Assembly (NCBI GenBank): GCA_000436535.1
Contig: FR886343.1
Coordinates: 26,691 to 90,690 of the forward strand
Direction of reading: 5' to 3'
Length of the DNA: 64,000 bases
Source: Eubacterium sp. CAG:252
GTDB taxonomy: Bacteria > Bacillota > Clostridia > Lachnospirales > Lachnospiraceae
Shown here one piece after another: positions 27,034-62,829 of the stretch. The first letter of the stretch is position 1. Every line of letters begins with the position of its first letter. The notes under the pieces were generated by a model. The model was not told where the DNA came from. It did not search any database and was given only the letters and a program-made list of their open reading frames with translations. A program made the translations under genes and the position numbers.

Positions 27034-30000
27034 ATGTATAAGTTTTTGGATGTTTTCAGAACATTGAAGCTGCCAGATGATATAAGAGTATATATGGAAA
27101 ATGTGGAGGTCACGAAGGTTTCGAAGACCTCCACTAATTCTCTTGCGAGAGTATACATTAAGAATGATAAAGTTATAAGTAAAAAGATTATATATAAGGT
27201 CGAAGATGCTTTAAAAAAGCAGATATTCCGTATACAGAATATGGATGTCAGGATTATTGACCGGTACAGGCTGTCAGAACAGTACACTCCACAGACTATT
27301 ATGGATGTGTATTATGACAGTATACTTTTTGAGTTAGAGAAGTACTGGACACTTGAGTATAATCTTTTAAAAAATTCAACGTGGGAGTTTGAAAAGAGCG
27401 ACCTTTTGGTGCTTACACTTGAAGATGGATTCCTTGCAAGAACATATGCTGATAATCTGACAGACTACTTTAAGAAAATATATCTTAACAGATTTGGTTT
27501 TGAGATAGATGTTGAGTATAGGTATTCACATAAGACGGAGAGTCACTATGAAAGAGAAAATGCACATAAGTTAAACTTGCGTGTAAAACAGATAGAGGAA
27601 CAGCTTCAGGCGGCAACGCAGAATGGTGAGGGAGATGCGAAGACTGTGAGTGAGGCTGATAAGAATAAGAAGAGAGCTGAACAGAAGGCGAAAGCAGCAG
27701 CATTTTTCAGTGAGAGAGGTGCCAGCGGAAAAGACCTTACAAGATACAGAAAGCCGGCTAATCAGGATGTTCTGTACGGTCGTGACTTCAATGATGAGAT
27801 AACTGCTATAGACCAGTTAGAAACACCTGTTGGAGAGGTGGTTATCAATGGTATGGTTATGAGTGTTGAGCCAAGACAGATAAGAGATGAAAGAACTATC
27901 CTTTCAATAGCTGTTACGGACTTTACAGACAGTATTATAGTTAAAATGTTTATAAAGAATGAACAGCTTGAGGATATATATAGTTTTGTAAAGGAAGGCA
28001 ATTTCCTTAAGATAAAAGGAATTGCAGCTATGGATAAGTTTGACCAGGAGATTACAATATCAAATGTTTCTGGCATAAGAAAAGGAACCGATAACAGAAG
28101 TGTAAGGACTGACCTTGCACTCAATAAGCGTGTTGAGCTACACTGCCATACTAAGATGAGTGATATGGATGGTGTATCTTATGCAAGCGATATTATCAAT
28201 CAGGCGATTAAGTGGGGACACAAGGCAGTTGCCATAACAGACCACGGGGTTGTACAGGCATTTACAGAAGCCTACCATACTATGCAGAAGCTCTGGGGTA
28301 AGTATGAGGCAAAGGGGGAAAAGCTTGACTTTAAGGTTATATACGGTGTTGAAGCATATCTTGTGGATGACACTAAAAAGATAGTAACTAATCCAAAGGG
28401 ACAGGACTTTGCGGGTGATTTCGTGGTATTTGACCTTGAAACAACAGGTTTCTCGGCACTTGTGGATAAGGTGATTGAGATTGGAGCTGTAAAGATTAGA
28501 AATGGAGAGATAGTAGACCGTTTCTCAACATTTGTTAATCCTAAAGTTCCAATATCCTTCCGAATAGAAAATCTTACGGGAATAAGCGACCAGATGGTTA
28601 TGGGTTCTAAGACTATAGAGGAAATTCTGCCGGAATTCCTTGAGTTCTGTGAGGGCTGTGTTATGGTTGCGCACAATGCTGAGTTTGATATGAGTTTTAT
28701 TATCAATAATGCAGAAAGACAGGGGCTTGAATTCTCACCATCATATATTGATACAGTGCTTCTGTCGCAGTTTCTTATTCCTGCACTTCATAATTATAAG
28801 CTGGATACACTAACTAAGCATCTTAATGTAGTGCTAGATAACCACCACAGGGCGGTTGATGATGCAGAGGCGACAGCGCATATATTCCTAAAGCTTATCA
28901 AAATGCTTGCGGACAGGGACATATTCACGCTTGATAAGCTCAATGAGGAGGGGGCGCTCGATGAAGAATCTATAAAGAAGCTACACCAGTATCACTGTAT
29001 TATTCTGGCAGCCAATGAGATGGGGAGAATTAATCTTTACAGACTTGTGTCAGCATCACATATGAAGTACTTTAACAGATTTCCAAAGATTCCCAAAAGT
29101 CTTGTGAACCAGTACAGGGAAGGCCTTATCATAGGAAGTGCATGTGAGGCGGGTGAGCTGTTCCGCGCCATGGTAAATGGACGTTCTGATGCTGAAATTG
29201 CAAGAATAGTAAGTTTTTATGATTATCTTGAAGTCCAGCCTATAGGTAATAACAGGTTTATGATAGAAAAGGAAGATTACTATGTAAAGGATGAGGAAGA
29301 CTTAAGAGATCTTAACAGGAGAGTTATATCGCTTGGGGAGAAGTTTGACAAGCCTGTTGTGGCTACGTGCGATGTGCATTTCCTTAATCCTGAGGATGAG
29401 ATATACAGAAGGATTATTATGGCGGGCAAGGGCTTTGATGATGCCGACAGCCAGCCGCCGCTGTATCTTCACACGACTGATGAAATGCTTCATGAGTTCG
29501 ATTATCTTGGAAGTGATAAGGCATATGAGATAGTTGTGACTAACACAAATAAGATTATGGATATGTGTGAGGAGATTATTCCGGTACGTCCTGATAAAAG
29601 ACCTCCTGTCATCGAGAATTCAGACCAGATGTTAAGAACTATATGTCATAACAGGGCACATGAAATATATGGACCTGAGCTTCCGGAGATAGTTACGGAG
29701 CGTCTTGAAAGAGAGCTTAATTCAATTATATCAAATGGTTATTCCGTTATGTACATTATTGCACAGAAGCTTGTGTGGAAGTCCAATGATGATGGCTATC
29801 TGGTAGGTTCAAGAGGTTCGGTCGGTTCTTCATTTGCAGCTACTATGGCTGGTATTACTGAGGTCAATCCGCTGAGTCCGCATTATCTGTGTCCAGAGTG
29901 CTATTACGTTGACTTTTATTCAGATGATGTAAAGAAGTTTGCGGGTGGTGCAGGTTGTGATATGCCGGATAAGTTATGTCCTAAGTGCGGACATAAGCTT

Positions 30001-31500
30001 AATAAGCTTGGTTTTGATATACCGTTTGAAACTTTCCTTGGTTTTAAGGGAAATAAAGAGCCTGATATTGATCTTAATTTCTCTAATGAGTATCAGAGTA
30101 AGGCACATGCCTATACAGAGGTTATATTTGGCAAAGGACAGACTTTCAAGGCGGGAACTATTGGTACAGTTGCAGAAAAGACTGCTTACGGATATGTATT
30201 TAAGTATCTTGAAGAACGTGGAAAGGTAAAAAGAAGATGTGAGATAGAGCGTATCGCAAAGGGCTGTATTGATATAAGAAGGACAACAGGACAGCATCCA
30301 GGTGGAATAGTCGTGCTTCCTATCGGTGATGAAATACATTCATTTACACCGATACAGCATCCAGCCAACGATGTGAAGAGTGGTATTGTTACAACACACT
30401 TTGATTACCACAGCATCGACCATAACCTGTTAAAGCTGGATATATTAGGACATCTTGACCCTACTATGATTCGTATGCTGCAGGATCTTACGGGTATCGA
30501 CCCTCTTGAAATTCCGCTTGACTCAAAGGAGGTTATGTCACTTTTTAAGGATACATCGGCACTTGGCATAAAGCCGGAGGATATAGGCGGCTGTAAGCTT
30601 GGTGCGCTTGGCATACCTGAGTTTGGTACTGACTTTGCCATGCAGATGCTTATTGATACCAAGCCACAGTATTTTTCTGACCTTGTACGAATAGCAGGAC
30701 TTTCACATGGTACTGACGTATGGCTTGGCAATGCGCAGACACTTCTTAAGGAGGGCAAGGCTACTATATCGACAGCTATCTGTACAAGAGATGATATTAT
30801 GATATATCTTATCCAGAAGGGACTTGAGAGTGAGCTTGCATTTACTATTATGGAAAAGGTAAGAAAAGGTAAGGGACTTACACCTGAATGGGAGCAGATT
30901 ATGAAGGAACACGGCGTTCCTGACTGGTACATATGGTCGTGTAATAAAATTCAGTATATGTTCCCTAAGGCACATGCGGCGGCATATGTTATGATGGCGT
31001 GGCGCGTTGCTTACTGCAAGGTATTCTATCCACTTGCCTATTATTGTGCCTACTTTAGTATAAGGGCAGATGCCTTTGATTATGAAAAGATGGCTATGGG
31101 CAGGGAACGGCTTGAATATTATCTTGATATGTATAAATCTAAGAAAGCAGATGGAACTATCGAAAAGACTGAGCTTGATGAGTACAAGGATATGCGTATT
31201 GTCCAGGAAATGTATGCAAGAGGCTACGAGTTTACACCGATTGACATATATAAGGCGAAAGCAAGAAGCTTCCAGATAATAGACGGAAAGATAATGCCAT
31301 CCTTTAAGGTCGTATCCAAGATAGGTGAGTCGGCAGGTGAGTCTATAGAGATAGCGGCAAGGGACGGAAAGTTCTTATCAAAGGATGACTTAAGGCAGCG
31401 TGCCAGGATAGGTCAGACGGTTATCGAAAAGTTAAGTGAGTTGAAGCTGCTTGACGGAATGGCAGAGAGCAACCAGTTGTCTTTGTTTGATGTTATATAA
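27034..31500 (+). CDS. polC: DNA polymerase III PolC-type (Gram-positive replicative polymerase)
   Basis: 1488 aa; PHP domain, 3'-5' exonuclease domain (FVVFDLETTGF...HNAEFDMSF...HRAVDDA) inserted in PHP, zinc finger CPECYY...CPKCGH, and a polymerase core. Confidence 0.97.
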   Translation: MYKFLDVFRTLKLPDDIRVYMENVEVTKVSKTSTNSLARVYIKNDKVISKKIIYKVEDALKKQIFRIQNMDVRIIDRYRLSEQYTPQTIMDVYYDSILFELEKYWTLEYNLLKNSTWEFEKSDLLVLTLEDGFLARTYADNLTDYFKKIYLNRFGFEIDVEYRYSHKTESHYERENAHKLNLRVKQIEEQLQAATQNGEGDAKTVSEADKNKKRAEQKAKAAAFFSERGASGKDLTRYRKPANQDVLYGRDFNDEITAIDQLETPVGEVVINGMVMSVEPRQIRDERTILSIAVTDFTDSIIVKMFIKNEQLEDIYSFVKEGNFLKIKGIAAMDKFDQEITISNVSGIRKGTDNRSVRTDLALNKRVELHCHTKMSDMDGVSYASDIINQAIKWGHKAVAITDHGVVQAFTEAYHTMQKLWGKYEAKGEKLDFKVIYGVEAYLVDDTKKIVTNPKGQDFAGDFVVFDLETTGFSALVDKVIEIGAVKIRNGEIVDRFSTFVNPKVPISFRIENLTGISDQMVMGSKTIEEILPEFLEFCEGCVMVAHNAEFDMSFIINNAERQGLEFSPSYIDTVLLSQFLIPALHNYKLDTLTKHLNVVLDNHHRAVDDAEATAHIFLKLIKMLADRDIFTLDKLNEEGALDEESIKKLHQYHCIILAANEMGRINLYRLVSASHMKYFNRFPKIPKSLVNQYREGLIIGSACEAGELFRAMVNGRSDAEIARIVSFYDYLEVQPIGNNRFMIEKEDYYVKDEEDLRDLNRRVISLGEKFDKPVVATCDVHFLNPEDEIYRRIIMAGKGFDDADSQPPLYLHTTDEMLHEFDYLGSDKAYEIVVTNTNKIMDMCEEIIPVRPDKRPPVIENSDQMLRTICHNRAHEIYGPELPEIVTERLERELNSIISNGYSVMYIIAQKLVWKSNDDGYLVGSRGSVGSSFAATMAGITEVNPLSPHYLCPECYYVDFYSDDVKKFAGGAGCDMPDKLCPKCGHKLNKLGFDIPFETFLGFKGNKEPDIDLNFSNEYQSKAHAYTEVIFGKGQTFKAGTIGTVAEKTAYGYVFKYLEERGKVKRRCEIERIAKGCIDIRRTTGQHPGGIVVLPIGDEIHSFTPIQHPANDVKSGIVTTHFDYHSIDHNLLKLDILGHLDPTMIRMLQDLTGIDPLEIPLDSKEVMSLFKDTSALGIKPEDIGGCKLGALGIPEFGTDFAMQMLIDTKPQYFSDLVRIAGLSHGTDVWLGNAQTLLKEGKATISTAICTRDDIMIYLIQKGLESELAFTIMEKVRKGKGLTPEWEQIMKEHGVPDWYIWSCNKIQYMFPKAHAAAYVMMAWRVAYCKVFYPLAYYCAYFSIRADAFDYEKMAMGRERLEYYLDMYKSKKADGTIEKTELDEYKDMRIVQEMYARGYEFTPIDIYKAKARSFQIIDGKIMPSFKVVSKIGESAGESIEIAARDGKFLSKDDLRQRARIGQTVIEKLSELKLLDGMAESNQLSLFDVI

Positions 31501-31639
31501 TTTTGACCCGCTCCAATATGAGCATAAAAGTGGGGATAGTCCAACGATATGCGAATATTAGGTGGAATTGTGGGAGTACGTGGCACGGAACAATCCGTAG
31601 GTACCATAGGTGGATAAATGACCTTGTGACTCTGGTATC
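31501..31639. repeat. Copy A of a repeated structured intergenic element, about 110-nt conserved core
   Basis: The core at 31507-31613 is about 88% identical to 38537-38646 (copy B). It contains the nested inverted repeats CCAATAT...ATATTGG and GGATTGT...ACAATCC and the hairpin ACGG-aacaat-CCGT. It begins immediately after the polC stop codon. Confidence 0.6.
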
Positions 31640-31764
31640 TAATTTAAAGTATATTATGTTGCATATATTCATATATATGTGGTATATTGTGTAAGTTGCT
31701 GGTGTATCAATCTGTTTATACAGGTTGATATGCCTTTTGTATGAATAATATCATGAGGTGAAAA

Positions 31765-32241
31765 ATGTTAAAAAAGTATCTTATATGTTTTTTAGTATCT
31801 ATGGTACCTATTGTCGAGCTTAGAGGAGCTATTCCTATATCACAGGGTATGCAGCTTCCTTTGTTACAGTCTTATATAATATGTGTAATTGGTAATATGC
31901 TTCCAGTACCTGTTATATATTTTTTTGCAAGACGTGTTCTTGAATGGGGAGCTGACAAGAAGTATATTGGCAAGTTCTTCACTTTCTGTATTGAAAAAGG
32001 ACACAAGGGTGGAGAGAAGTTAAAGAAGAAGGCTGGTAACGGACTTTTTATAGCACTTCTTTTATTCGTTGGAATTCCAGTTCCAGGAACAGGTGCATGG
32101 ACAGGAACACTTGCAGCAAGCTTTCTTGATATGGGCTTTAAGAAGAGCGTAATCGCAGTTCTTGGCGGCGTGCTGCTTGCAGGAGTTATTATGGGACTTG
32201 CATCGGCGGGATTATTTACAGCACTGTTTAGTCTGTTTTAA
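31765..32241 (+). CDS. Small multidrug-export-like membrane protein (Sm_multidrug_ex/COG2426 family)
   Basis: 4 to 5 TM helices; N-terminal PIVELRGAIP motif typical of this family; RBS GAGGTG before the ATG. Confidence 0.65.
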   Translation: MLKKYLICFLVSMVPIVELRGAIPISQGMQLPLLQSYIICVIGNMLPVPVIYFFARRVLEWGADKKYIGKFFTFCIEKGHKGGEKLKKKAGNGLFIALLLFVGIPVPGTGAWTGTLAASFLDMGFKKSVIAVLGGVLLAGVIMGLASAGLFTALFSLF

Positions 32242-32299
32242 GACAAAGGGAAATTTGACAGAGCTATAATGAGTGATTGCGTTCAGGCATATTTGATGA

Positions 32300-32575
32300 A
32301 GAACGGACGACATAGAATAAGCGGATGCCTATAGCACAGACGGTATTCGACACCAGAAGATTTAATTTACGCGGGCAACGAGCTAAAGTCATATGCGGGC
32401 ATATGACCTTGGCGACTGCCTCGATAACAATAAGAAACACGTTATGCGGGTTTCTCATTATTGGTTATTTCTAAGACTTTTCATATAGGTATTAACTGCG
32501 ACCGCTACCGTTTGATACGGAACGTCCTGTCCCATACCGGGCTTCCACAGACATCCGCTTATTCTATGTCTGGCT
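32300..32575 (+). ncRNA. Candidate structured non-coding RNA or MITE-like element, class unknown
   Basis: It sits in a 600-nt ORF-free stretch. A perfect 19-bp helix forms between 32309-32328 (GACATAGAATAAGCGGATG) and 32552-32570 (CATCCGCTTATTCTATGTC) and encloses about 220 nt. Internal hairpins are GTCATATGC/GCATATGAC and CGTT-tgatacgg-AACG. GC content is higher than in the flanking DNA. Confidence 0.3.
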
Positions 32576-32764
32576 GTGATAAATTGTATTAATTATGATA
32601 AAGTTAGTTAATAAAAAGAGTTTTATATTGAAAATCTGTTACAAAAGCCTTGGGATTATGTGTTTTTTCGATATTATAAAACAGGTAAAACCCAGTATTT
32701 ATGCGGGTTCAGAAGAAAACTTCAATTTTTCTTCAAAATTTTTGAAAAAAATTGAAAAAAGTGC

Positions 32765-32799
32765 TTGACGGATTGGGTATTCAGGTGTATTATAATGAA
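32765..32799 (+). promoter_or_regulatory. Candidate sigma-A promoter for the tRNA-Glu gene (-35 TTGACG, 17-nt spacer, extended -10 TGtATTAT), with upstream A-tracts
   Basis: TTGACGgattgggtattcaggTGtATTAT lies about 40 nt upstream of the mature tRNA 5' end and is preceded by an A/T-rich UP-like element. Confidence 0.5.
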
Positions 32800-32839
32800 G
32801 TGCTCAGCGATAAGCGCTGACACAAAGTATTAAAGATAT

Positions 32840-32911
32840 GGCTTATTGGTCAAGTGGTTAAGACGTCGCCCTCTCACGGCGAAGACAGGGGTTCGACTCC
32901 CCTATAAGCTA
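32840..32911 (+). tRNA. tRNA-Glu (anticodon CUC)
   Basis: Manual cloverleaf: 7-bp acceptor stem with G1.U72, D arm with G18G19, anticodon stem TCGCC/GGCGA with loop CUCUCAC (anticodon CTC), T arm AGGGG-TTCGACT-CCCCT, discriminator A, no encoded CCA. The overall sequence closely resembles Firmicute tRNA-Glu. Confidence 0.85.
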
Positions 32912-32934
32912 TTCTGAGTTATATTCGACTGACA

Positions 32935-32967
32935 AGAGTGGGCATTGATGTCCACTCTTTCGTTTTT
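32935..32967 (+). terminator. Hairpin plus U-tract after the tRNA
   Basis: AGAGTGG-gcattgatgt-CCACTCT followed by TTCGTTTTT. Confidence 0.6.
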
Positions 32968-33048
32968 ATCCTGAAATATTTATCAGGGTCTGGCGGTATA
33001 GGCATATGTGAATGTGATTCAGTATCAAATTATAAGAAAGAGGTAGAC

Positions 33049-33513
33049 ATGGGTAAGAGAGAAGATTACGAGGCTAAGACGGAACAGCTTATAGCGCCTA
33101 TCATCGCTGCCAATCATGTGGAACTTTTTGATGTGGATTACATTAAGGAAGGTCAGGACTGGTACTTAAGAGTCTATATCGACAAAGAAGGCGGAGTCAC
33201 TATAGATGACTGTCAGGCGGTAAGCAGAGCTTTCAATGAGGTGCTGGATAAGGAGAATTATATTGCAGACCAGTATATATTTGAGGTGAGTTCTCCGGGA
33301 CTTACAAGACCTTTAAAGAAAGAAAAGGATTATGAAAAAAGTATAGGACGACTGTTAGACATTAAGCTTTATAAGCCTGTTGAGGGTAAGAAGGAATACG
33401 CGGGTATCCTTAAGGAATATAATAAGGATATTATTATTATAGAGTCTGATGATACACAGATAACTATTGAAAGAAGCAATCTTGCTATGATTAGATGGGC
33501 TTATGTAGACTAG
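33049..33513 (+). CDS. rimP: Ribosome maturation factor RimP
   Basis: The conserved RimP fold begins at MGKREDYEAKTEQL after RBS AAAGAGG; the track ORF is over-extended 5'. Directly upstream of nusA. Confidence 0.9.
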   Translation: MGKREDYEAKTEQLIAPIIAANHVELFDVDYIKEGQDWYLRVYIDKEGGVTIDDCQAVSRAFNEVLDKENYIADQYIFEVSSPGLTRPLKKEKDYEKSIGRLLDIKLYKPVEGKKEYAGILKEYNKDIIIIESDDTQITIERSNLAMIRWAYVD

Positions 33514-33573
33514 AAGCAGTTGATGGTGTGTATGTGAGTATAGTTTTAGATTAAATTATGGAGGATGATAAAG

Positions 33574-34809
33574 ATGAATAAGGATTTAATACTTGCGATT
33601 GAGGCTTTGGAAAAAGAAAATGGTATCAGCAAAGAGATTATGTTTGATGCTATTGAAAAGTCTTTAATGGATGAGTATAAGGCAGAATTTGATAAGGCTG
33701 ATAACGGAAGGGTATCACTTGACAGAATAACTGGAGATTTCCATATATATTCAGACAGAACAGTCGTTGAGAAGGTGGAAGTTCCAGAATTCAGAGAGAA
33801 TAAGAAGGAAAAGTATGTTTCTGGTACAGAGATAGCCTTAGAGGATGCAAGAAAGATTAAGCCGGGATGTCAGATAGGTGATGTTATCACTATCGAGGTT
33901 AAGTCTGAAGAGTTCTCAAGAAAGGCTGCAAAAAATGCAAAGAACACCATTGTACAGACAATAAGAGAACAGGAAAAAAATGCACTTTATAATGAGCTTC
34001 ATGATAAGGAAAGAGAAATTATTACAGGTGTAGTACAGAGAATTAACGATAATGGTGATATGACAATTGACATCGGAAGAACACAGGCGGTTCTTAAGGC
34101 TGATGATAAGTCAAGAGATAACAGCAGATTTAAGGATAAGGAATTCAAGCCAGGTGACAGAATAAAGGTATATGTTGTAAGTGTAAGCAACAGAGAAAGA
34201 AACGGACTTGGAATAAAGATATCAAGAAAGTCACCAGAATTCGTTAAGAAGTTATTTGAAGAAGAAGTAACTGAGATTAAGGATGGAACAGTTGAGATTA
34301 TGGCAATCGCAAGAGAAGCTGGTTCCAGAACTAAGATGGCAGTAAGAGCAAATGTTCCACACGTAGACCCAGTTGGCGCATGTGTTGGTATTAACGGCGC
34401 AAGAGTTAAGAATATTGTAAATGAACTTGGCAGCGAGCAGATAGATATCGTTGAGTGGGACAGCAATCCAGCACAGCTTATTGTTAATGCACTCAGCCCT
34501 GCAAAGGTTGTATCAGCAGTCGCTGATGAAGAAGAAAAGAAGGCTAAGATAATTGTATCTGAACAGCAGTTATCACTTGCTATCGGTAAGTCAGGACAGA
34601 ATGTAAGACTTGCAGCAAAGCTTACAGGATATGGTATAGATATAAAGAGCGAAGCAGATGCAGAGGAGTTTGAAGAAGAAACACAGGAAGCAGAGTCAGT
34701 ATATGACAATGAAGAGATAGCTGATAGTGATATTCAGGCTGAACAGGAAACATATCCAGAAGATGAAGAAGCAGATGCAGCCTCTGACACAGAAGTTGTA
34801 GAAGAATAA
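33574..34809 (+). CDS. nusA: Transcription termination/antitermination factor NusA
   Basis: N-terminal RNAP-binding domain, S1 domain, two KH domains (GxxG at IGKSGQNVRLA), and an acidic C-terminal tail; RBS GGAGG 9 nt before the ATG. Confidence 0.95.
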   Translation: MNKDLILAIEALEKENGISKEIMFDAIEKSLMDEYKAEFDKADNGRVSLDRITGDFHIYSDRTVVEKVEVPEFRENKKEKYVSGTEIALEDARKIKPGCQIGDVITIEVKSEEFSRKAAKNAKNTIVQTIREQEKNALYNELHDKEREIITGVVQRINDNGDMTIDIGRTQAVLKADDKSRDNSRFKDKEFKPGDRIKVYVVSVSNRERNGLGIKISRKSPEFVKKLFEEEVTEIKDGTVEIMAIAREAGSRTKMAVRANVPHVDPVGACVGINGARVKNIVNELGSEQIDIVEWDSNPAQLIVNALSPAKVVSAVADEEEKKAKIIVSEQQLSLAIGKSGQNVRLAAKLTGYGIDIKSEADAEEFEEETQEAESVYDNEEIADSDIQAEQETYPEDEEADAASDTEVVEE

Positions 34810-34828
34810 TATTTTTGGGAGTGATATT

Positions 34829-35101
34829 TTGGCAGCAGTAAAGAAGATTCCACAAAGACAATGTGTTGGTTGTAACCAGATGAAGAATAAGAAAGAACTT
34901 ATTCGTATCCTTAAAACACAGGATGAACAAATCATAATAGACACAACGGGAAAGAAGAACGGCAGAGGGGCTTATATATGTCCTGATGCAGAATGTCTTA
35001 AGAAGGCAAGAAAGTCAAAGGGACTTGAGAGAGCTTTCAAGATGGCGATTGACCCAGGTGTTTATGATGAGCTTGAAAAGGAGATGAGTAATCTTGAATA
35101 A
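34829..35101 (+). CDS. ylxR: YlxR/RnpM-family (DUF448) RNA-binding protein
   Basis: KKIPQRQCVGCNQMKNKKELIRI is the DUF448 signature; TTG start after GGGAG; position after nusA. Confidence 0.85.
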   Translation: MAAVKKIPQRQCVGCNQMKNKKELIRILKTQDEQIIIDTTGKKNGRGAYICPDAECLKKARKSKGLERAFKMAIDPGVYDELEKEMSNLE

Positions 35102-35396
35102 TAGCAGAGCATTATCAATGATAGGTCTTGCAATGAAGGCCGGAAAAGTTGCAAGCGGAGAGTTTTCAACAGAAAAGGCTGTAAAAGAGCATAAGGCATA
35201 TATGGTGATAGTAGCAGATGATTCATCTGATAATACCAAGAAGAACTTCAGAAATATGTGTGAGTACTATAAGGTTCCGGTGTATTTCTTTAGCAATAAA
35301 GAAGAGCTGGGACATGCGATAGGTAAAGAATTCAGGGCATCACTCGCAATCCTTGATGAAGGATTTAAAAATAGTATTGAAAAACATTTTAAGTAG
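35094..35396 (+). CDS. L7Ae-family ribosomal protein-like protein (YlxQ)
   Basis: LAMKAGKVASGEFSTEKAVKEHKAYMVIVADD matches the L7Ae/L30e fold; overlaps the ylxR stop; precedes infB. Confidence 0.8.
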   Translation: MNNSRALSMIGLAMKAGKVASGEFSTEKAVKEHKAYMVIVADDSSDNTKKNFRNMCEYYKVPVYFFSNKEELGHAIGKEFRASLAILDEGFKNSIEKHFK

Positions 35397-35476
35397 ATAT
35401 TAGTAACTATTGGTGTATAATAACATATGGGTGTGGCAGATAGTTAGTAACACTGGTATGTTGGAAAAGAGGTCAA

Positions 35477-38407
35477 ATGGCAAATATGAGAGTTCATGAA
35501 CTGGCAAAGGAATTAAATATTTCTTCAAAGGATATAACTGATATGCTTAGCAATAATGAAAAGAAATACACAGCGATGAGCGGACTTGGAGAAGCTGAGA
35601 TAAACAGCGTAAAAGGAAAGTTCAAGGCTAAGCCAGTTGCTAGTAACAATGCAGTAAAATCAGAACCTAAAAAGGCAGAAGAAAGAAACGTGAAAATACA
35701 GGAAAATAATAAAGTGGAAGAAAAGAAAGTAAATATAGAAAAGAAAGAACAGATAAAGTCAGAGGACGTTAAGGCATCAGCAGAAAAGAAGACATCTGCA
35801 CAGGATGGAGATAAGAAGCACATATCACAGGTATATTTCCCACAGAACAGCCAGAAGTCTGATAACAGAGAAAGAAATAATAACAGAAGAGACGGCAATA
35901 ACGGTAACTATAGAAATAACGACCGTAACAGAGACAACCGTGACAACAGGGATGGAAATAACGGCGGCTATAGAAATAATGACCGTAACAGAGATGGAAA
36001 CGGTGGTTATAGAAATAACGACCGTAACGGTTATGGAAACAGAGACAGCAGAGACGGAAACAACGGCGGCTATAGAAATAATGACCGTAACAGAGATGGA
36101 AACGGCGGTTACAGAAATAACGACCGTAACGGTTATGGAAACAGAGACAACAGAGACGGAAACAACGGCGGCTATAGAAATAATGACCGTAACAGAGATG
36201 GAAACGGTGGTTATAGAAATAATGACCGTAACGGCTATGGAAACAGAGATAACAGAGACGGAAACAACGGCGGCTATAGAAATAATGACCGTAACAGAGA
36301 TGGAAACGGTGGTTATAGAAATAACGACCGTAACGGTTATGGAAACAGAGACAGCAGAGACGGAAACAACGGCGGCTATAGAAATAATGACCGTAATGGA
36401 AACAACAGCCATCGTTCTGGCAGAGACGGTCAGGGTTTTGCAGGTGCAAGAAGAAATGACAGAACTTCTTCAGCACCTAAGGATGATTTCATATTTGAGA
36501 CAAAGCCGGATTCAAGAAGACCAGACTCAAGAAAGAATGACTCAAGAAAGAACGATAGAAAGAAGGATAATGAGGCAAAGGAAAATCTTAAGTTTGCTAA
36601 CAGCAAGCATGAGAAGAAGCCGGCTTCAAAGCAGGAAAAGAAGGAAGAAGAAACAATTAAGCAGCTTATCTTACCTGACAGCCTCACTATAAAGGAACTT
36701 GCTGATAAGATGAAGGTTCAGCCATCAGCTATCGTTAAGAAGTTATTCCTTCAGGGTAAGATTGTTACAATTAATCAGGAAGTGGATTATGATACAGCAG
36801 AAGAGATAGCACTTGAGTTTAACTGCATATGTGACCATGAGGTTAAGGTTGATGTTATTGCAGAACTCCTTAAGGAAGATGAAGAGTCAGAGGACGATAT
36901 GGTAGCAAGACCACCAGTTGTCTGCGTTATGGGTCACGTTGACCATGGTAAGACTTCACTTCTTGATGCAATCAGGGAAACACATGTAACAGACAAGGAA
37001 TCTGGTGGTATTACACAGAAGATTGGCGCTTACATGGTTGATGTAGACGGACAGAAGATTACATTCCTTGATACACCGGGTCATGAAGCGTTTACAGCTA
37101 TGCGTATGCGTGGTGCACAGGCTACAGATATCGCTATTCTTGTAGTAGCAGCCGATGATGGTGTCATGCCACAGACTATTGAGGCTATTAACCATGCCAA
37201 GGCAGCAGGTGTTGAGATTATCGTTGCTGTTAATAAGATTGATAAGCCTAATGCTAATATCGAGAAGGTTAAGCAGGAGCTTACAGAGTATGAACTTATC
37301 GCAGAAGACTGGGGTGGTTCTACTACATTTGTTCCAGTATCAGCACATACTAAGGAAGGTATAGATGAACTTCTTGAAATGATTCTTCTTACAGCTGAGG
37401 TTAATGAATTAAAGGCTAATCCTAACCGTAAGGCAAGAGGTATCGTAATTGAGGCTGAGCTTGATAAGGGACGTGGTCCTGTAGCTACAATACTTGTACA
37501 GAAGGGTACATTAAAAGTTGGTGATGCAGTTGCCGCTGGTTCATGCTATGGTAAGATAAGAGCCATGATAGATGATAAGGGAAGAAGAGTTAAGGAAGCT
37601 ACACCTTCTATGCCAGTTGAGATACTTGGTCTTAATGATGTACCTAATGCCGGTGAGATTATTATGGCTACAGACAACGAAAAGGAAGCAAGAAATATTG
37701 CTGATACATTTATCGCTGAAGGTAAGAAGAAGCTTCTTGATGATACAAAGCATAAGGTATCGCTTGACGCATTATTCGAGCAGATTCAGGCTGGTAATAT
37801 GAAGGAACTTGACCTTATCATAAAGGCAGATGTACAGGGTTCAGTAGAGGCAGTTAAGCAGAGTCTTGTAAAGCTTTCTAATGAAGAGGTTATCGTTAAG
37901 GTTATCCATGGCGGTGTTGGTAATATCAACGAGTCCGATGTAGTTTTAGCATCAGCTTCTAACGCTATTATCATCGGTTTCAACGTAAAGCCGGATAATC
38001 AGGCAAGAATAGTAGCTGAGAGAGAAAAGGTTGACTTAAGACTTTACAGCGTTATTTACAATGCTATCGAGGATGTTGAAGCAGCTCTTAAGGGTATGCT
38101 TGAGCCTATATATGAGGAAAAGATTATCGGTCATGCTGAAATCAGACAGATATTCAAGGCTTCTGGTGTTGGTAACATCGCAGGTGCTATCGTTACAGAA
38201 GGTAGAATGACTAAGGATTCTATTGTAAGAATTACGAGAGATAAAGAGCAGATCTATGAAGGACCTATCGCAACACTTAAGCATTTCAAGGATGATGTCA
38301 AGGAAGTTAAGGCGGGTTCTGAGTGTGGTATGGTATTCGAGAACTTCGGACAGATTCAGGAGGGCGATCTTGTAGAAGCCCACATTATGGTAGAAGTACC
38401 AAGATAA
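35477..38407 (+). CDS. infB: Translation initiation factor IF-2, with a repetitive low-complexity N-terminal region
   Basis: N-terminal [20 protein letters not shown]; G-domain motifs [17 protein letters not shown] and NKID; a C-terminal beta-barrel domain. The N-terminal region carries a tandem R/N/D/G/Y-rich repeat. Confidence 0.97.
35861..36420 (+). repeat. Intragenic tandem repeat in infB, 102-bp period, about 5 copies
   Basis: GGCGGCTATAGAAATAATGACCGTAACAGAGATGGAAAC... recurs at 35963, 36065, 36167, 36269 and 36371, exactly 102 bp apart. Copies 1 and 4 are identical; copies 2 and 3 differ only at about 5 mostly synonymous positions. The 34-aa unit is [28 protein letters not shown](S/N)RDGNN. 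Confidence 0.9.
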
Positions 38408-38429
38408 AAGCAAAGTTAACATATTCAAA

Positions 38430-38460
38430 GTATCCGGAGTATATGTGTCCGGATACTTTA
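38430..38460 (+). terminator. Hairpin after infB with a weak U-tract
   Basis: GTATCCGGA-gtatatgtg-TCCGGATAC followed by TTTAATGTT. Confidence 0.5.
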
Positions 38461-38470
38461 ATGTTACAAA

Positions 38471-38664
38471 GATACCAGGGTCAAAAGGTCTAAACCCACA
38501 TGAGCTTGCTCATAGGTGGGTGAATGACCTTGGGACCCGCCCCAATATGAGCATAAAAGTGGGATGACAGTCCCACGATATGCGAATATTGGGCAGGATT
38601 GTGGGAGTGCGCAGCACGGAACAATCCGTAGGTATCATAGTTGGGGGCTTTTGACCCCAATATC
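38471..38664. repeat. Copy B of the repeated structured intergenic element, bounded by short inverted repeats
   Basis: The core at 38537-38646 is about 88% identical to 31507-31613. It is flanked by GGGTCAAAAG (38478-38487) and CTTTTGACCC (38648-38657). It occupies the infB-rbfA gap, where B. subtilis has ylxP. Confidence 0.6.
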
Positions 38665-38710
38665 TTACAAAATATGAATTATAATAAAGTGTCAGAAAAA
38701 GGGGAGCATA

Positions 38711-39100
38711 ATGCGTAAAAACAGTGTTAAGAATACCCGTATCAATGGCGAGGTATTAAAAGAACTTAGCAATATTATCCGCAGCGAAATCAAGGATCCA
38801 AGAATTAATCCTATGACTTCGGTTGTATCCGTTGAGGTAGCACCTGACCTTAAGACATGTAAGGCATATATAAGTGTTCTGGGTGACGAAAAGTCACAGC
38901 AGGATACTATTGCTGGTCTTAAGAGTGCAGAAGGATATATAAGAAGAGAGCTTGCAAGAACAGTTAATCTTCGTAATACTCCTGAGATTAAGTTTATACT
39001 TGACCAGTCAATAGAATACGGAATAAATATGTCTAAGCTTATAGATGAAGTTACAAAAAAAGATGATGAGAGTCATAAGAATTCAGACGAAAACATTTAA
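38711..39100 (+). CDS. rbfA: Ribosome-binding factor A
   Basis: RINGEVLKELSNIIRSEIKDPRI...VEVAPDLKTCKAYISVLG conserved RbfA KH-like domain; RBS AAGGGGAG. Confidence 0.9.
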   Translation: MRKNSVKNTRINGEVLKELSNIIRSEIKDPRINPMTSVVSVEVAPDLKTCKAYISVLGDEKSQQDTIAGLKSAEGYIRRELARTVNLRNTPEIKFILDQSIEYGINMSKLIDEVTKKDDESHKNSDENI

Positions 39101-51948: not shown

Positions 51949-53841
51949 ATGGTTTTTAGCAAAGAACAGAAGTCGGCGATACATTTTAAGGACGGACCTG
52001 CACTTGTACTTGCGGGTCCGGGTTCTGGAAAGACTACAGTTATTGTAAACAGAATAATAAGTCTTATAAAGGAACACAGTGTTTCCCCGTCTTCGATATT
52101 GGTCATTACATTTACAAAGGCGGCTGCAAAGTCTATGCGGCAGCGTTTTCTGTCACTTACGGGTGAGTCTTATGTATCAGTAACATTTGGTACATTCCAC
52201 GCAGTATTTTTTTCTATGCTGCGCCATGCTTACAATTATTCAGCAGGTTCAATAATAAAAGCAGATATACAGTACAATTATATAAGAAATGCAGCTATGG
52301 GCTTTGAGCTGGAATATCCCGATGAAAATGAGATGGTAACAGGCATTATATCGGAGATAAGCCGTGTAAAAAGCAACAGGCTGTGTATAGATACATATGA
52401 GGCAGTAAGCTGTCCAGCAGCTACATTCCGTCTTATATATAAGAAATATGAAAATATGCTTATAAGCAGAAGAATGATAGATTATGACGATATGATTATT
52501 ATGTGTTATGAGCTGTTATCTAAAAGAGCAGACTATAGAAAGGCGTGGCAGGATAAGTATAAGTATATACTTGTGGATGAATTTCAGGATATTAATAAGG
52601 CACAATATGATACCATAAAGCTTATAGCAGGAAAGCAGGCTAACCTTTTTGTGGTAGGTGATGATGACCAGAGCATATATGCTTTCAGGGGGTCAAAGCC
52701 TGATATTATGCTTGGACTTTCCACAGAGTACAGAGATATTGTACAGATGTATCTTAATACCAACTACAGGTGCTCATCAGAGATAGTGGCAGGCGCGCGT
52801 TCGCTGATAGAATATAATAAGGTGCGCTTCGCAAAGGATATAAGGTCGTGTGGAATGTGTTCAGGCAGAATTAAAGTGTGCAAAATGGCAGATATAGAAG
52901 AGGAGGCGTTGTATCTGTCAAAGGAAGTAAGGGAGCTTATTGCAGACGGAATTAAGCCGGAGGAAATAGCAGTCATATCACGCACAAATATAATAAGCAA
53001 CATATATTATACAAGGCTTAACAGCGATGGTGTGGCGTGCAGGACATTAACAGCAGTACATAATATATATGATAGCTGGCTTATGCAGGATATAGCCGCA
53101 TATATGAGATTATCACAGGGGATGTATGATAAGGAAAATGCAGTCAGAATAATTAACAAGCCGTCAAGATATATAAAGAGGGCACTGATTACACAGCCTT
53201 TTAACTTTGAACACTTAAGAAAATGCTATGACGGCGATGAGGGCCTGATAAAGATTATTAATGATATGCAGTTTGACATAAAAATGCTTTCACATATGTC
53301 ACCTTATGCAGCGGTTAACTACATTCTTAAAGGCATAGGTTACGAGGATTATATAAATGAAGAGATAATAAGAAAACGTCTGAATAAAGAAGAGGTCTAT
53401 GCCAAGCTGACAGAGATAAAGACATTGTCCAGAAAATATATGGATATAAAACAGTGGCTTAAATATATAGATGAACAGGCAGAAAAAACGGAGCGGGAAA
53501 ATAAGAGTGACAAAAGACAGGGTAATCAGAAAAACAGTGATGAAAAAGACAGTGCCGGAGCAGTAAATATATACACAATGCACAGCTGCAAAGGACTAGA
53601 ATTCAAAGCTGTATTTATAATGGATGTGTGCGAAGGCATAATACCGTACAATAAGGCGGTGCTTGATAATGAGATAGAGGAGGAGAGAAGACTTATGTAT
53701 GTTGCCATGACAAGGGCAAAAGAAAAGCTGTATCTTGTATATCCCATAAAGAGATATGGACACGATACAGCCGCTTCACGTTTTATAAGTGAGATAGATA
53801 AAGCTTATATAGAAAGCTTTGACTACTCCACGAATTCATAG
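51949..53841 (+). CDS. UvrD/Rep-family ATP-dependent DNA helicase (short form)
   Basis: Walker A GPGSGKT, motif II VDEFQD, and motifs III-VI (VVGDDDQSIYAFRG, YRCSSEI, TMHSCKGLEF, VAMTRAK). At 630 aa it is shorter than PcrA. Confidence 0.85.
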   Translation: MVFSKEQKSAIHFKDGPALVLAGPGSGKTTVIVNRIISLIKEHSVSPSSILVITFTKAAAKSMRQRFLSLTGESYVSVTFGTFHAVFFSMLRHAYNYSAGSIIKADIQYNYIRNAAMGFELEYPDENEMVTGIISEISRVKSNRLCIDTYEAVSCPAATFRLIYKKYENMLISRRMIDYDDMIIMCYELLSKRADYRKAWQDKYKYILVDEFQDINKAQYDTIKLIAGKQANLFVVGDDDQSIYAFRGSKPDIMLGLSTEYRDIVQMYLNTNYRCSSEIVAGARSLIEYNKVRFAKDIRSCGMCSGRIKVCKMADIEEEALYLSKEVRELIADGIKPEEIAVISRTNIISNIYYTRLNSDGVACRTLTAVHNIYDSWLMQDIAAYMRLSQGMYDKENAVRIINKPSRYIKRALITQPFNFEHLRKCYDGDEGLIKIINDMQFDIKMLSHMSPYAAVNYILKGIGYEDYINEEIIRKRLNKEEVYAKLTEIKTLSRKYMDIKQWLKYIDEQAEKTERENKSDKRQGNQKNSDEKDSAGAVNIYTMHSCKGLEFKAVFIMDVCEGIIPYNKAVLDNEIEEERRLMYVAMTRAKEKLYLVYPIKRYGHDTAASRFISEIDKAYIESFDYSTNS

Positions 53842-58628: not shown

Positions 58629-58974
58629 TTGACATTATCTGGTATATGAGTTATTATCTAAACAATTGATAATAAGTAAATGCTACGAAGAGGAATATTA
58701 GATAAGAACCGGCTTCAGAGAGCTGTCGTATGGTGCAAGACAGTGGAAGGAACTTATTGAACTCGCCTTGGAGCTGCTACCCGAAATATTACGATAGAGT
58801 AGACGTAGACGGAGGCCGACCGTTAAAGCGGACAGAATATAATACACATATTGTTTACAGATGTGTACGTATTCAGTGAGAGCGTAGTGAAAGCTACGAA
58901 TAAGAGTGGTATCGCGTGAGATTATATCTTTCGTCTCTTAGGGGCAGGTGTCCTTTGGAGGCGGAAGTTTTTTT
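58629..58974 (+). promoter_or_regulatory. T-box riboswitch leader (leucine specifier) with promoter and terminator, upstream of leuA
   Basis: Promoter TTGACA (58629-58634), 17-nt spacer, TATTAT (58652-58657). Stem I carries AGAGA and GA motifs and a candidate specifier CUU-A or CUC (both Leu). The T-box sequence AATAAGAGTGGTATCGCGTG at 58899-58918 matches the AGGGUGGNACCGCG consensus at 12 of 14 positions. The terminator is CTTTCGTCTC-ttaggggcaggtgtcctttg-GAGGCGGAAG plus TTTTTTT (58928-58974), and its 5' strand overlaps the T-box. Confidence 0.6.
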
Positions 58975-62734: not shown

Positions 62735-62829
62735 TAAGAAGCGATATTTTAATATTTAGATAGTTGGGGCTTTTGCCCCGGCATTTATATTCGTTATGCT
62801 CAAAAAACGTGAGCAGAAATGGAGATTAT

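Follow-up and report, generated by a model that had tools for sequence, protein, structure and literature searches.

The Clostridiales-1 RNA motif very probably forms the inside of a small non-autonomous MITE-like DNA transposon of Lachnospiraceae

The DNA analyzed here (termed the window) is a stretch of 64,000 nucleotides from Eubacterium sp. CAG:252. It displays a sequence of about 110 nt twice, once behind polC (copy A) and once behind infB (copy B). This raises the question of what the repeated sequence is, and whether its position behind two large essential genes has a meaning. An initial annotation of the window gave about 88% identity over about 110 nt in the same orientation, and this is borne out: a local alignment of the two copies shows 97 identical positions out of 111 (87.4%) on the same strand. 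A repeat search of the window resolves the similarity into two same-strand blocks separated by a 2-nt indel, i.e. 31505–31534 with 38534–38563 (97% identity) and 31535–31613 with 38566–38644 (86%).

The sequence had been thought to belong to no described element, which is incorrect. An Rfam scan, proposed at that time as a check, shows that both copies match RF01699 (Clostridiales-1 RNA) above the gathering score of 48, copy B with 149.1 bits (E = 1.3e-34) and copy A with 57.6 bits (E = 5e-10). Both are also found by nhmmer with an HMM of the element (E = 2.9e-52 for copy B and 1.2e-21 for copy A). Because these E-values are so low, chance is excluded, and both repeats are copies of the Clostridiales-1 family. 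Clostridiales-1 was published as an orphan four-stem motif (Weinberg et al. 2010, PMC2864571); it has the same setting as the repeats here, Clostridiales and the human gut, and is characterized as a “large four-stem structure with significant covariation”. It was described as a probable stand-alone RNA, and the “repetitive element” flag, present for a neighbouring motif in the same table, is absent for it (PMC2864571). The motif itself was already known; what is new is its carrier, a mobile element. The Clostridiales-1 motif very probably is the inside of a small non-autonomous MITE-like DNA transposon of Lachnospiraceae, and the two repeats are copies of this transposon.

Copy B is the complete element (Table 1). 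Its order is left inverted repeat, four-stem Clostridiales-1 fold, 3′ hairpin and right inverted repeat. The inverted repeats are 17 nt each; the left one doubles as the 5′ strands of P1 and P2 and is kept in 52 homologues among the matches listed. The RF01699 model ends ~27 nt short of the true right end of copy B and leaves out the 3′ hairpin, the right inverted repeat and the target duplication. The initial annotation had seen GGGTCAAAAG and CTTTTGACCC bracketing copy B. This is confirmed, but the element is bigger than was described and is in addition flanked by 7-bp direct repeats.

Table 1. Features of the two element copies and of a third fragment, with positions in the window.
Feature	Position	Strand	Basis or remark
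Copy B, complete 194-nt element	38471..38664	+	nhmmer HMM positions 1-193
RF01699 match, full length, model positions 1-166	38470..38637	+	149.1 bits, all four stems
Copy B left target-site duplication TTACAAA, 7 bp	38464..38470	.	single TTACAAA in empty sites
Copy B right target-site duplication TTACAAA, 7 bp	38665..38671	.	single TTACAAA in empty sites
Copy B left terminal inverted repeat GATACCAGGGTCAAAAG	38471..38487	+	0 mismatches to consensus
Copy B right terminal inverted repeat GATATTGGGGTCAAAAG	38648..38664	-	14/17 positions as in left repeat
P2, long hairpin, conserved G(CUUG)C apical loop	38478..38538	+	structure and covariation
P3, hairpin, conserved tandem GA/GA internal loop (AUGAGCAU ... 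AUGCGAAU)	38539..38594	+	
P4, hairpin, purine-rich internal loop (GGGA / GGA)	38596..38627	+	structure
P5, 3′ hairpin outside the Rfam model	38640..38661	+	predicted fold
Copy A, 135-nt relic	31505..31639	+	nhmmer HMM positions 60-189; RF01699 57.6 bits
Copy A right terminal inverted repeat GATACCAGAGTCACAAG	31623..31639	-	2 mismatches to left-end consensus
Copy A probable left target-site duplication TAATTTT	31498..31504	.	6/7 as in TAATTTA; probable duplication
Copy A probable right target-site duplication TAATTTA	31640..31646	.	6/7 as in TAATTTT
ATAGTTGGGGCTTTTGCCCC, resembles copy B right-end module	62760..62779	+	spacing identical in 9/9 conspecific contigs

The insertion of copy B can be read directly from an empty site. 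Three of ten conspecific contigs (L123, L128 and L129, with identical RbfA) have an infB-rbfA spacer of 102 nt with one TTACAAA and no element. In the window and in the seven other contigs the site is occupied, and consists of the 102-nt spacer plus 194 and 7 nt. The stretch absent from the three contigs is exactly 38471–38664. Copy B has entered the infB-rbfA spacer recently; it is intact and still polymorphic within the species. Copy B had also been said to occupy the slot of ylxP; this reading has no meaning here, as the empty site is a plain 102-nt spacer.

Copy A, on the other hand, is a partial, decayed member of Clostridiales-1 only. Of P2 only the final 11 nt of the 3′ strand are left; P3, the 3′ strand of P1 and the right end are retained, P4 is damaged, and the left inverted repeat is missing. 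In its Rfam alignment 47 P2 model positions are reduced to 19 nt, the long P2 hairpin is missing and there are non-canonical pairs in P1, P3 and P4. The folding energy of copy A is no better than that of shuffled sequences (z = −0.9, compared with −9.8 for copy B). The nested helices that the initial annotation saw in both copies are poorly preserved in copy A. The left-end consensus matches three places in the window, i.e. both ends of copy B and the right end of copy A; three matches were obtained in only 1 of 100 shuffles of the window. The motif AATGACCTTG(G/T)GAC does lie 5′ of the core in copy B and 3′ of it in copy A, but it was wrong to regard the flanks as permuted, since the motif belongs to the terminal inverted repeat, of which it forms the inner part. 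In copy B it is the 3′ strand of P2, pairing with the left end, and in copy A it is the right end itself.

TAATTTT and TAATTTA at the borders of copy A are a probable target-site duplication, and the polC stop codon TAA is part of the former. The sequence behind 31640–31646 aligns directly behind the polC stop codon of sister lineages, and copy A is the gap in this alignment. All 16 conspecific contigs carry copy A; lineages whose PolC C-termini are 96%–97% and 90% identical, and which have the same gene downstream, do not. Copy A is an old insertion at the polC stop codon that has lost its left end and is decaying.

The two copies are 7 kb apart on the same strand, as a recent local duplication within this stretch would leave them. 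Copy B, however, is closer to copies in other genomes (95.9% identity to one in another Lachnospira genome and 93.3% to one in a further genome) than to copy A. The flanking repeats also differ, TTACAAA against TAATTT(T/A), and copy A is found in every conspecific contig examined whereas copy B is polymorphic. A local duplication is refuted by these identities, flanks and presence patterns, and it has practically no chance of being the correct explanation.

Homologues in other genomes display the same architecture. The complete element is ~175–205 nt long, begins with GATRCCAGGGTCAAAAG and ends with an imperfect inverted copy, CTTTTGACCCCAACATC. The two ends change together among homologues, GCGTC with GACGC and GTGTC with GACAC. 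Thirteen complete homologues between inverted repeats score 113–157 bits with RF01699, and 12 of them have exact flanking direct repeats. Among the matches listed, exact direct repeats adjoin both ends in 19 of 25 complete elements (7 bp in 13, 8 bp in five and 9 bp in one) and are lacking in six; the duplicated sequence differs at every locus. An exact abutting 7-mer is found upstream in 24 of the 42 listed elements with a complete 3′ end, compared with 1.6 on average and at most 5 in permuted flanks; deletion derivatives of 65–137 nt are among these elements. The inverted repeats at the ends, the duplicated target sites and the empty site support the “structured MITE” that the initial annotation had named as one candidate.

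The element is dispersed over at least 120 homologous loci, in up to 4 contigs per assembly, and no fewer than 19 contigs break off within a copy. The homologues were gathered by a pattern in P4, so that copies with P4 are over-represented. Neighbouring genes are unrelated (an ABC transporter, pheT, a GH3 glycosidase, ruvB, ftsH, htpG and others). According to crude ORF calls, 61 copies among the matches listed are oriented as follows with respect to the flanking genes: 27 same/same, 13 opposite/opposite, and 12 and 9 mixed.

These data bear on another idea of the initial annotation, that of a cis-acting 3′-UTR, processing or stability element of polC and infB. Both copies are indeed downstream of large essential genes and on their strand, and copy A separates the polC stop codon from the terminator hairpin of that gene (31701–31734). 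But 3 of 10 conspecific contigs have these flanks without copy B, and copy A is missing from sister lineages with the same gene order and is structurally decayed. Homologues adjoin unrelated genes in both orientations, and the upstream gene is on the opposite strand in 25 of the 61 listed copies. An element dedicated to polC and infB is refuted by the empty sites of copy B and the absence of copy A in sister lineages, and this explanation is left with a very slight probability. The placement behind polC and infB is coincidental, and particular insertions may secondarily influence the stability of an mRNA.

An ordinary family of trans-acting sRNA genes, whose copies were merely duplicated with mobility irrelevant or absent, would agree with the Rfam type label (“Gene; sRNA”), the strongly conserved structure and a slight excess of co-orientation with neighbours. 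It does not agree with the inverted repeats, the locus-specific 7–8 bp duplications and the precise empty site within one species, and these contradict it as the sole explanation. The fold begins at the first base and there is thus no room for a conserved internal promoter; the + strand has no terminator, and many copies are decayed or truncated. Such a gene family is very improbable.

The transposon carries an RNA-like fold. Copy B has a folding energy of −98.5 kcal/mol, and its + strand forms a four-way junction (P1–P4) plus the 3′ hairpin, with a conserved CUUG loop, tandem GA/GA loop and purine-rich loop. The stems have stayed paired through compensatory changes. Paired cells amount to 85.4%, compared with 30%–48% after sliding of the partners. 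Both sides have changed in 48 of the 60 pairs, and none of 500 shuffles reached any of the observed measures. In P2, helices 2 and 4 are paired in 88%–91% and 17 of 18 pairs have changed on both sides. Helix 5 in P3 is paired in 95%, and in 10 of its 12 pairs both sides have changed, e.g. ACCGA/UGAGGU in place of AUGAG/CGAAU with the GA/GA loop retained. In the P4 inner helix 3 of 4 pairs covary; the outer helix was fixed by the search pattern and is uninformative. P5 is built on the inner part of the right inverted repeat, is not followed by a U-tract and is often longer among homologues (GGGGTCAAAAnnCCTTTTGACCCC); no terminator was called on the + strand. The fold is strongly supported by this covariation, and so is the claim of a folded element that does not code for protein. 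The small open reading frame ATGAGCATAAAAGTG stops after 6 codons in copy B (ATG AGC ATA AAA GTG GGA TGA) and runs on in copy A, as had been noted.

The helices might instead owe their preservation to the DNA itself, through palindrome maintenance, cruciforms or gene conversion between the inverted repeats of a MITE, with no functional single-stranded RNA. The minus strand of copy B folds nearly as well (z = −7.9), and P2 and P5 are made from the inverted repeats themselves. In well-aligned pairs, however, G·U exceeds A·C (56 vs 24, p = 4.5e-4), although these counts are not phylogenetically independent and the bias is concentrated in few pairs, e.g. 19 G·U vs 1 A·C at columns 20/84. The conserved asymmetric loops and the CUUG tetraloop are meaningful only on the + strand. 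Maintenance at the DNA level is therefore considered improbable. At the same time, conserved loops and covarying stems exceed the needs of a transposase, so “just a MITE” does not account for the fold.

Another explanation makes the fold the functional core of the mobile element, selected for promoting spread and not for sparing the host. It would be an RNA or folded single DNA strand needed by the transposase, or a self-processing RNA, i.e. a ribozyme-like four-way junction in which adjacent arms bear the two internal loops. Covariation is kept across diverged, still mobile subfamilies, the excess of G·U over A·C points to one strand, and the CUUG, GA/GA and GGGA/GGA loops resemble protein-binding or tertiary contacts. 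HEARO and IS605-orfB, orphan motifs from similar comparative searches that later proved to be transposon guide RNAs, offer a precedent. But deletion derivatives of 65–137 nt still have target duplications: L049 (65 nt, P4 only), L074 (115 nt), L092 (137 nt, P3 and P4 only) and the P2-only copies L107 5864–5940 (77 nt) and L025 5880–5815. No single RNA module is thus needed for movement, which argues against an RNA role in transposition. No associated protein gene was found in the neighbourhoods examined, and no known ribozyme family was matched in Rfam. A functional core is unlikely, with a small but real chance.

For the MITE-like transposon the following course is proposed. The element inserts at AT-rich intergenic sites (consensus AT-N3/4-AT), duplicating 7–8 bp of the target, and would move by cut- or copy-and-paste through a DDE-type enzyme, the transposase presumably being supplied in trans. 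As a best guess, the fold, which is compact, free of a terminator and closed by P1, may make an insertion into a transcribed spacer harmless, or mildly useful, for the mRNA of the host, and lineages that keep the fold would consequently persist. The 13 of 61 listed copies that are antisense to both neighbours fit poorly with a role dependent on host-gene read-through.

Folding MITEs are known in bacteria: Correia/NEMIS in Neisseria, RUP and BOX in Streptococcus pneumoniae, ERIC/IRU in enterobacteria and bcr1 in the Bacillus cereus group. They are essentially one long imperfect hairpin formed from inverted repeats, they duplicate short, fixed targets (TA, TTTAT), and co-transcription with neighbouring genes is frequent. 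The element described here shares with them the small size, absence of an open reading frame, terminal inverted repeats, target-site duplication, intergenic location, many copies and insertion polymorphism between strains. It differs in its multi-branched junction, conserved loop motifs, heavy compensatory change and 7–8 bp duplications at AT-N3/4-AT sites. Structured RNAs borne by transposons are a second group, i.e. HEARO (IscB omega RNA), IS605-orfB (TnpB omega RNA) and the IS110 bridge RNA. As in these, a covarying fold within a mobile element was catalogued before its context was understood. These RNAs adjoin the gene of the protein that they serve, and IS200/605 and IS110 elements are not known to have 7–8 bp target duplications or classical inverted repeats; the element here has no adjacent protein gene and has both inverted repeats and duplications.

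Some IS families, e.g. IS256, make 8–9 bp duplications and have ends starting with GG/GA (ISfinder summaries). The element appears similar in duplication size, in inverted repeats starting with GA and in a TTGAC-like motif in its ends, but its commonest duplication is 7 bp. No transposase with these ends, of IS256 type or other, was found in ~1 Mb of flanking DNA, and neither such a transposase nor an autonomous element in that DNA, in plasmids or in viral contigs. Kinship with IS256 is a lead only.

A third fragment had been reported upstream of rlmH at 62776–62798. It exists, but its position is different (Table 1), and at E < 1e-3 the element HMM does not detect it. ATAGTTGGGGCTTTTGCCCC may have remained from the end of an element, or it may simply be the terminator hairpin of an 88-aa open reading frame at 62468–62734.

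A sequence of about 110 nt is present twice on the same strand of the window, as reported in the initial annotation. A repeat search of the window matches positions 31505–31534 with 38534–38563 (97%) and positions 31535–31613 with 38566–38644 (86%). Local alignment of the two copies, termed copy A (behind polC) and copy B (in the infB–rbfA spacer), shows an identity of 97/111 (87.4%). The whole window was scanned with Rfam 15 at gathering thresholds. Copy B (38470–38637) matches the full model of RF01699, the Clostridiales-1 RNA, at model positions 1–166 with 149.1 bits (E = 1.3e-34), and copy A (31468–31606) matches the same family with 57.6 bits, compared with the gathering score of 48 bits. 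The window therefore carries an intact and a decayed member of a catalogued family, and not the novel RNA class that had been put forward as a candidate.

Copy B belongs to RF01699 by score, architecture and taxon, and copy A by score only. In copy B, stem P1 closes a junction with the hairpins P2, P3 and P4; the cmscan alignment shows this arrangement, and the minimum-energy fold gives it independently. Copy A does not display this four-stem architecture: P2 is deleted, P4 is damaged, and the 5′ strand of P1 falls in mismatched polC coding sequence. The Rfam alignment shows 47 model positions, the long P2 hairpin, replaced by 19 nt. With respect to taxon and habitat, homologous loci are nearly all from Lachnospiraceae genomes or from metagenome-assembled genomes of gut samples. 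The assemblies of the conspecific contigs are labelled metagenome (METAG), the contigs of the polC relatives have human-gut metagenome in their names, and the window RbfA sequence occurs in 4951 indexed blocks of the assembly collection; those contigs that were sampled bear metagenome labels.

Clostridiales-1 was judged to be a probable RNA, and neither cis-regulatory nor a riboswitch; the accompanying table has no "repetitive element" flag for this motif, yet has one for a neighbouring motif (Weinberg et al. 2010, PMC2864571). The motif is also named in other papers of the searchable literature, none of which gives a function for it, and searches of that literature with the motif name, with Lachnospiraceae MITEs and with the inverted-repeat sequence yielded nothing relevant past the 2010 paper. 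The mobile nature of Clostridiales-1 thus appears to be unreported in the searchable literature and in the 2010 description.

Homologues were gathered by a P4 sequence pattern using one genome per species, which gave at least 120 loci, nearly all in Lachnospiraceae; this set is biased by the pattern itself and by metagenome-assembled genomes of uneven quality. The elements are 65–205 nt in size. The only ATG common to the copies opens 6 codons in copy B, and there is no conserved coding capacity. Elements begin with GATRCCAGGGTCAAAAG and close about 27 nt past the Rfam model with a hairpin (P5) and then CTTTTGACCCCAACATC, an imperfect inverted copy of the start. The copy B unit is thus larger than first delimited. 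This extent, the helices of copy A and the coordinates of a third fragment (see below) are the three corrections to earlier sequence details that are otherwise mostly right. The positions of the terminal inverted repeats are shown in the table. There are three matches to the left-end consensus in the window, a number that was reached in only 1 of 100 shuffles of the window. In addition, the two ends co-vary across diverged subfamilies, GCGTC being found with GACGC and GTGTC with GACAC.

Coordinates of the repeat ends, shorter forms, neighbouring genes and other RNA matches (window positions unless a homologous locus, L, is named)
Feature	Locus	Positions	Strand	Size	Remarks
PolC ORF	window	27034–31500		1488 aa	copy A begins 4 nt past the stop codon
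IF-2 ORF (infB)	window	35477–38407			upstream of copy B
RbfA ORF	window	38711–39100			downstream of copy B
Left terminal inverted repeat, copy B, GATACCAGGGTCAAAAG	window	38471–38487	+		0 mismatches to left-end consensus
Right terminal inverted repeat, copy B	window	38648–38664	-		3 mismatches; 14/17 identical to left repeat
Right terminal inverted repeat, copy A	window	31623–31639	-		2 mismatches; 15/17
Shorter form	L049			65 nt	P1 and P4 only
Shorter form	L074			115 nt	
Shorter form	L092			137 nt	P3 and P4
Shorter form	L107	5864–5940		77 nt	two ends and top of P2; ATATGAT flanking both sides
Shorter form	L025	5880–5815	-	66 nt	ends and top of P2; flanks ATGACTTTAT/ATGAATTTAT, 9/10 identical
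Third fragment, ATAGTTGGGGCTTTTGCCCC	window	62760–62779			resembles copy B right-end module ATAGTTGGGGGCTTTTGACCCC
T-box leader	window	58676–58941			Rfam match
RF03531	window	53650–53750			Rfam match
tRNA	window	32840–32911			Rfam match

Direct repeats abut the ends of the elements and differ from locus to locus, e.g. TTACAAA (copy B), ATGTTAT, ATTATAAT, ATGACAT, ATAGCGT and ATTTTAC. Exact direct repeats are found in 19 of 25 complete elements (13 of 7 bp, 5 of 8 bp and 1 of 9 bp) and the other six have no exact flanking repeat. The target consensus is AT-N3/4-AT. The 7-mer downstream of the element is exactly repeated upstream in 24 of 42 elements with a complete 3′ end; when the flanks are permuted between loci, the number of such elements averages 1.6 and never exceeds 5. 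Elements that have flanking repeats are members of the Rfam family: thirteen complete ones score 113–157 bits against RF01699; the derivative with P3 and P4 scores 57.9 bits and the smallest derivatives are below threshold. Thus a small non-coding element with inverted repeats enters AT-rich intergenic sites and duplicates 7–8 bp of the target.

Contigs that encode an RbfA identical to that of the window were used to look for an empty site. The distance from the end of infB to rbfA is 303 nt in the window and in most of these contigs, and 102 nt in three of them (L123, L128 and L129). An alignment of these three with the window and with L121, another such contig, shows that the flanks are identical. 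TTACAAA is present once in the short spacers, which read ...TTTAATGTTACAAAATATGAAT...; the long spacers have TTACAAA, 194 nt (GATACC to AATATC), and TTACAAA again. Among ten conspecific contigs with 10-kb flanks, seven are filled and three are empty. Because of the identical flanks, the single versus double TTACAAA and the 194 nt between them, copy B is a precise insertion (or excision) polymorphism inside one species. Past the infB stop codon, at 38430–38463, is a hairpin, GTATCCGGA...TCCGGATAC, followed by TTTAATG, and copy B is inserted right after it.

A recent local duplication could also place two similar sequences 7 kb apart. Copy B displays 95.9% identity over 194 nt with a locus in a Lachnospira sp. 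genome (L019), the closest named relative, and 93.3% with another locus (L054), compared with 87.4% with copy A. Copies in other genomes are thus nearer to copy B than copy A is, and a local duplication is excluded.

Copy A is found in 16 of 16 conspecific contigs, including the three without copy B, and no polymorphism was found among these 16. It is absent from metagenome contigs whose PolC C-termini are 96–97% and 90% identical. These sister lineages have the same downstream gene, encoding a small multidrug-export family protein; their spacer between polC and this gene is about 105–130 nt and gives no match to the element HMM. In an alignment with the sister lineages, copy A is a single clean gap that opens at the polC stop codon. 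At its right end, copy A has a good inverted repeat, after which TAATTTA follows. At its left end is TAATTTT, which holds the stop codon TAA; the final 11 nt of the 3′ strand of P2 come directly after it. The simplest reading is that copy A would be an old insertion with the duplication TAATTT(A), from which a deletion across a TTT microhomology would later have removed the left inverted repeat and the greater part of P2.

The view that both copies preserve the helices does not hold for copy A, which does not keep them well in the Rfam alignment. Its fold energy is -38.1 kcal/mol (z = -0.9), compared with -98.5 kcal/mol (z = -9.8) for copy B. Copy A is decayed. The flanks had also been described as permuted between the copies; the motif concerned, AATGACCTTG(G/T)GAC, makes up the inner portion of the inverted repeat, and is seen as the P2 3′ strand in copy B and as the right end in copy A. 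It should be noted that the polC terminator is a separate hairpin at 31701–31734.

The copies are dispersed. There are two in the 64-kb window, and several metagenome-assembled genomes have three or four copy-bearing contigs per assembly (at least 120 loci overall). Contig ends fall within a copy in at least 19 cases; this is expected, because repeats break short-read assemblies. The copies are intergenic and, by crude open reading frame calls, are found in all orientations with respect to the flanking open reading frames (27 same/same, 13 opposite/opposite, 12 opposite/same and 9 same/opposite). Neighbouring genes are unrelated, e.g. those for an ABC transporter, pheT, a GH3 glycosidase, an amidohydrolase, PTS IIB, ruvB, an L,D-transpeptidase, ftsH, MBOAT, htpG and degV, among others. 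There is no consistent downstream gene: ten open reading frames directly 3′ of copies represent ten unrelated families. A cis-regulatory or 3′-UTR RNA of one gene is rejected on account of the unrelated neighbours, the four orientation classes and the absence of the element from conspecific strains; the position behind polC and infB, to which significance had been attached, has no regulatory meaning.

Three genomes share the same htpG/degV neighbourhood (L047 4395–4576, L054 1685–1878 and L119 142–220), where two have the full-length element and the third a derivative with P4 only. Either an old orthologous insertion decays differently among them, or the site is an insertion hot spot. At L091 (260–421) the open reading frame upstream of the element matches Pfam DUF6783 (E = 9e-21), with no evident link to the element. 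Copies at L013, L052, L054 and L060 are on contigs binned as Tidjanibacter, Coriobacteriaceae and Bacteroidales; this is probably mis-binning and not cross-phylum transfer, since the host range is otherwise strictly Lachnospiraceae.

Shorter forms at the homologous loci retain the ends and the flanking repeats (see table). The element is polymorphic within a species and diversifies through internal deletion. Judged by sequence, the P2 hairpin of the full element itself looks like one of the mini-elements that consist of the ends and the top of P2 (66–77 nt).

Head-to-tail arrays of two to four copies are present at L034 (4270–4776), L014 (484–1000), L109 (7306–7571), L072 (2–377) and L012 (1570–2039), with periods of 107, 184, 169, 150 and 313 nt, respectively. 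Such arrays are unusual for a cut-and-paste element and may be assembly artefacts, as some contain runs of N. A solo right-end fragment at L069 (2752–2800, minus strand) consists of the P1 3′ strand, the 3′ hairpin and the right inverted repeat. It is about 60 nt from a complete copy. Element ends can survive as isolated hairpins. The third fragment in the window, which had been placed at 62776–62798, has the position shown in the table. All 9 conspecific contigs compared have it at the same spacing, without polymorphism, and it is below threshold in the element HMM search. Either it is a remnant of an element end, or it is merely the terminator hairpin of an 88-aa open reading frame at 62468–62734.

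The earlier proposal of a folded RNA is supported by covariation. A MAFFT alignment covering 52 distinct near-complete elements was used for counting pairs, with the Rfam structure projected from copy B. Paired cells amount to 85.4%, compared with 30–48% when the partners are slid by 1–3 columns; changes on both sides are seen in 48 of 60 pairs, and none of 500 shuffles attains any of the observed pairing measures. The P4 outer helix was fixed by the search pattern and is uninformative on covariation. P3 shows replacement of a whole helix (AUGAG...CGAAU versus ACCGA...UGAGGU) with the tandem GA/GA internal loop kept, and in P2 a G(CUUG)C apex is retained above stems that differ in length and sequence.

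Over all pairs, G·U and A·C counts (88 versus 85) are uninformative because MAFFT misaligns the tops of P2 and P3. In 40 well-aligned pairs there are 56 G·U and 24 A·C (binomial p = 4.5e-4, not corrected for phylogeny). This excess favours a single-stranded fold of the + strand, RNA being the simplest case, over maintenance of a symmetric DNA palindrome. An intrinsic terminator is rejected: none is called on the + strand in 38380–38730, and P5 is followed by AAUAUCUUAC and has no U-tract. There is no convincing + strand promoter inside the element, and the TTGACC of the right end could not form a hybrid promoter with the nearest TATAAT, since the distance of 23 nt is too large.

The element has these features of a MITE: small size, no coding capacity, inverted repeats, locus-specific duplications, empty sites and dispersed copies. 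Clostridiales-1 very probably rides an active miniature DNA transposon family. Elements of the IS200/IS605 type are marked by the lack of a target duplication, a fixed tetra- or pentanucleotide insertion site and association with tnpA, tnpB or iscB. An IS200/IS605-type element or omega RNA is rejected here, as the duplications are variable and of 7–8 bp, there is no tnpA, tnpB or iscB nearby, and there is no Rfam omega-RNA match.

A DDE-type transposase that recognises the ends would mobilise the element in trans. A search of L001–L120 outside the known copies for extra inverted-repeat cores, GGGTCAAAAGG with at most one mismatch, gave only fragments of small copies, e.g. L069 2752–2800. All-against-all clustering of the 717 open reading frames of at least 200 aa from these loci, with Pfam assignment of recurrent clusters, yielded no transposase and housekeeping proteins only (MBOAT, HtpG, DegV, ABC transporters, Opp, UvrB and NFACT). 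BLAST searches of 72,556 plasmids with the element and its left end gave no match or chance 17–20-mers, and the left end in IMG/VR gave five contigs, all with ordinary small copies and no autonomous element.

These results raise the question of why a mini-transposon retains a four-way junction with conserved loops. An explanation that is weakly favoured is that a compact, P1-closed and terminator-free fold would make insertions in transcribed spacers harmless or mildly useful, one such spacer being part of the essential nusA-infB-rbfA operon; lineages retaining the fold would persist and seed new copies. That the fold is instead selected at the level of the element, for an element-level function, is a tentative suggestion. 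Such a role would be that of an RNA or single-strand cofactor of the presumed transposase, or of a self-processing or insulating module that enables life in essential operons. If true, this would be the first bacterial MITE family with a complex conserved functional RNA and not a simple hairpin. Direct service of the fold to the element, as a cofactor or self-processing RNA, seems rather unlikely: derivatives without any one module still carry target duplications, thus movement does not require any individual RNA module in cis.

Transcribed MITEs of bacteria include Correia, RUP, BOX, ERIC and bcr1. As a mobile element, the element described here works in a similar way; unlike them, it has a branched, loop-conserved fold together with 7–8 bp duplications. 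HEARO and IS605-orfB are orphan motifs that were later tied to transposons, a similar history, but here there is no adjacent protein gene and target duplications are present. Clostridiales-1, listed since 2010 as an orphan small RNA, now has inverted repeats, target-site duplications and moving deletion derivatives, and is polymorphic within a prevalent human-gut species. RF01699 matches in gut metagenomes thus tally a repeat and not a gene, and insertion of the element is a strain-level marker for Lachnospiraceae.

Two further observations concern the window. A tandem-repeat block with periods of 39 and 102 nt is present in infB (35834–36445), in the N-terminal part of IF-2. Among strains with identical RbfA, IF-2 has a length of 908, 976, 977 or 979 aa, and infB is called in two pieces in two contigs; from its sequence the block looks like a repeat-number polymorphism in an essential gene. 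The other Rfam matches in the window are a T-box leader (112.5 bits); within a helicase gene, RF03531 "n00280" (85.7 bits), which is an sRNA of C. difficile; and a tRNA that has the small multidrug-export gene on one side and rimP on the other.
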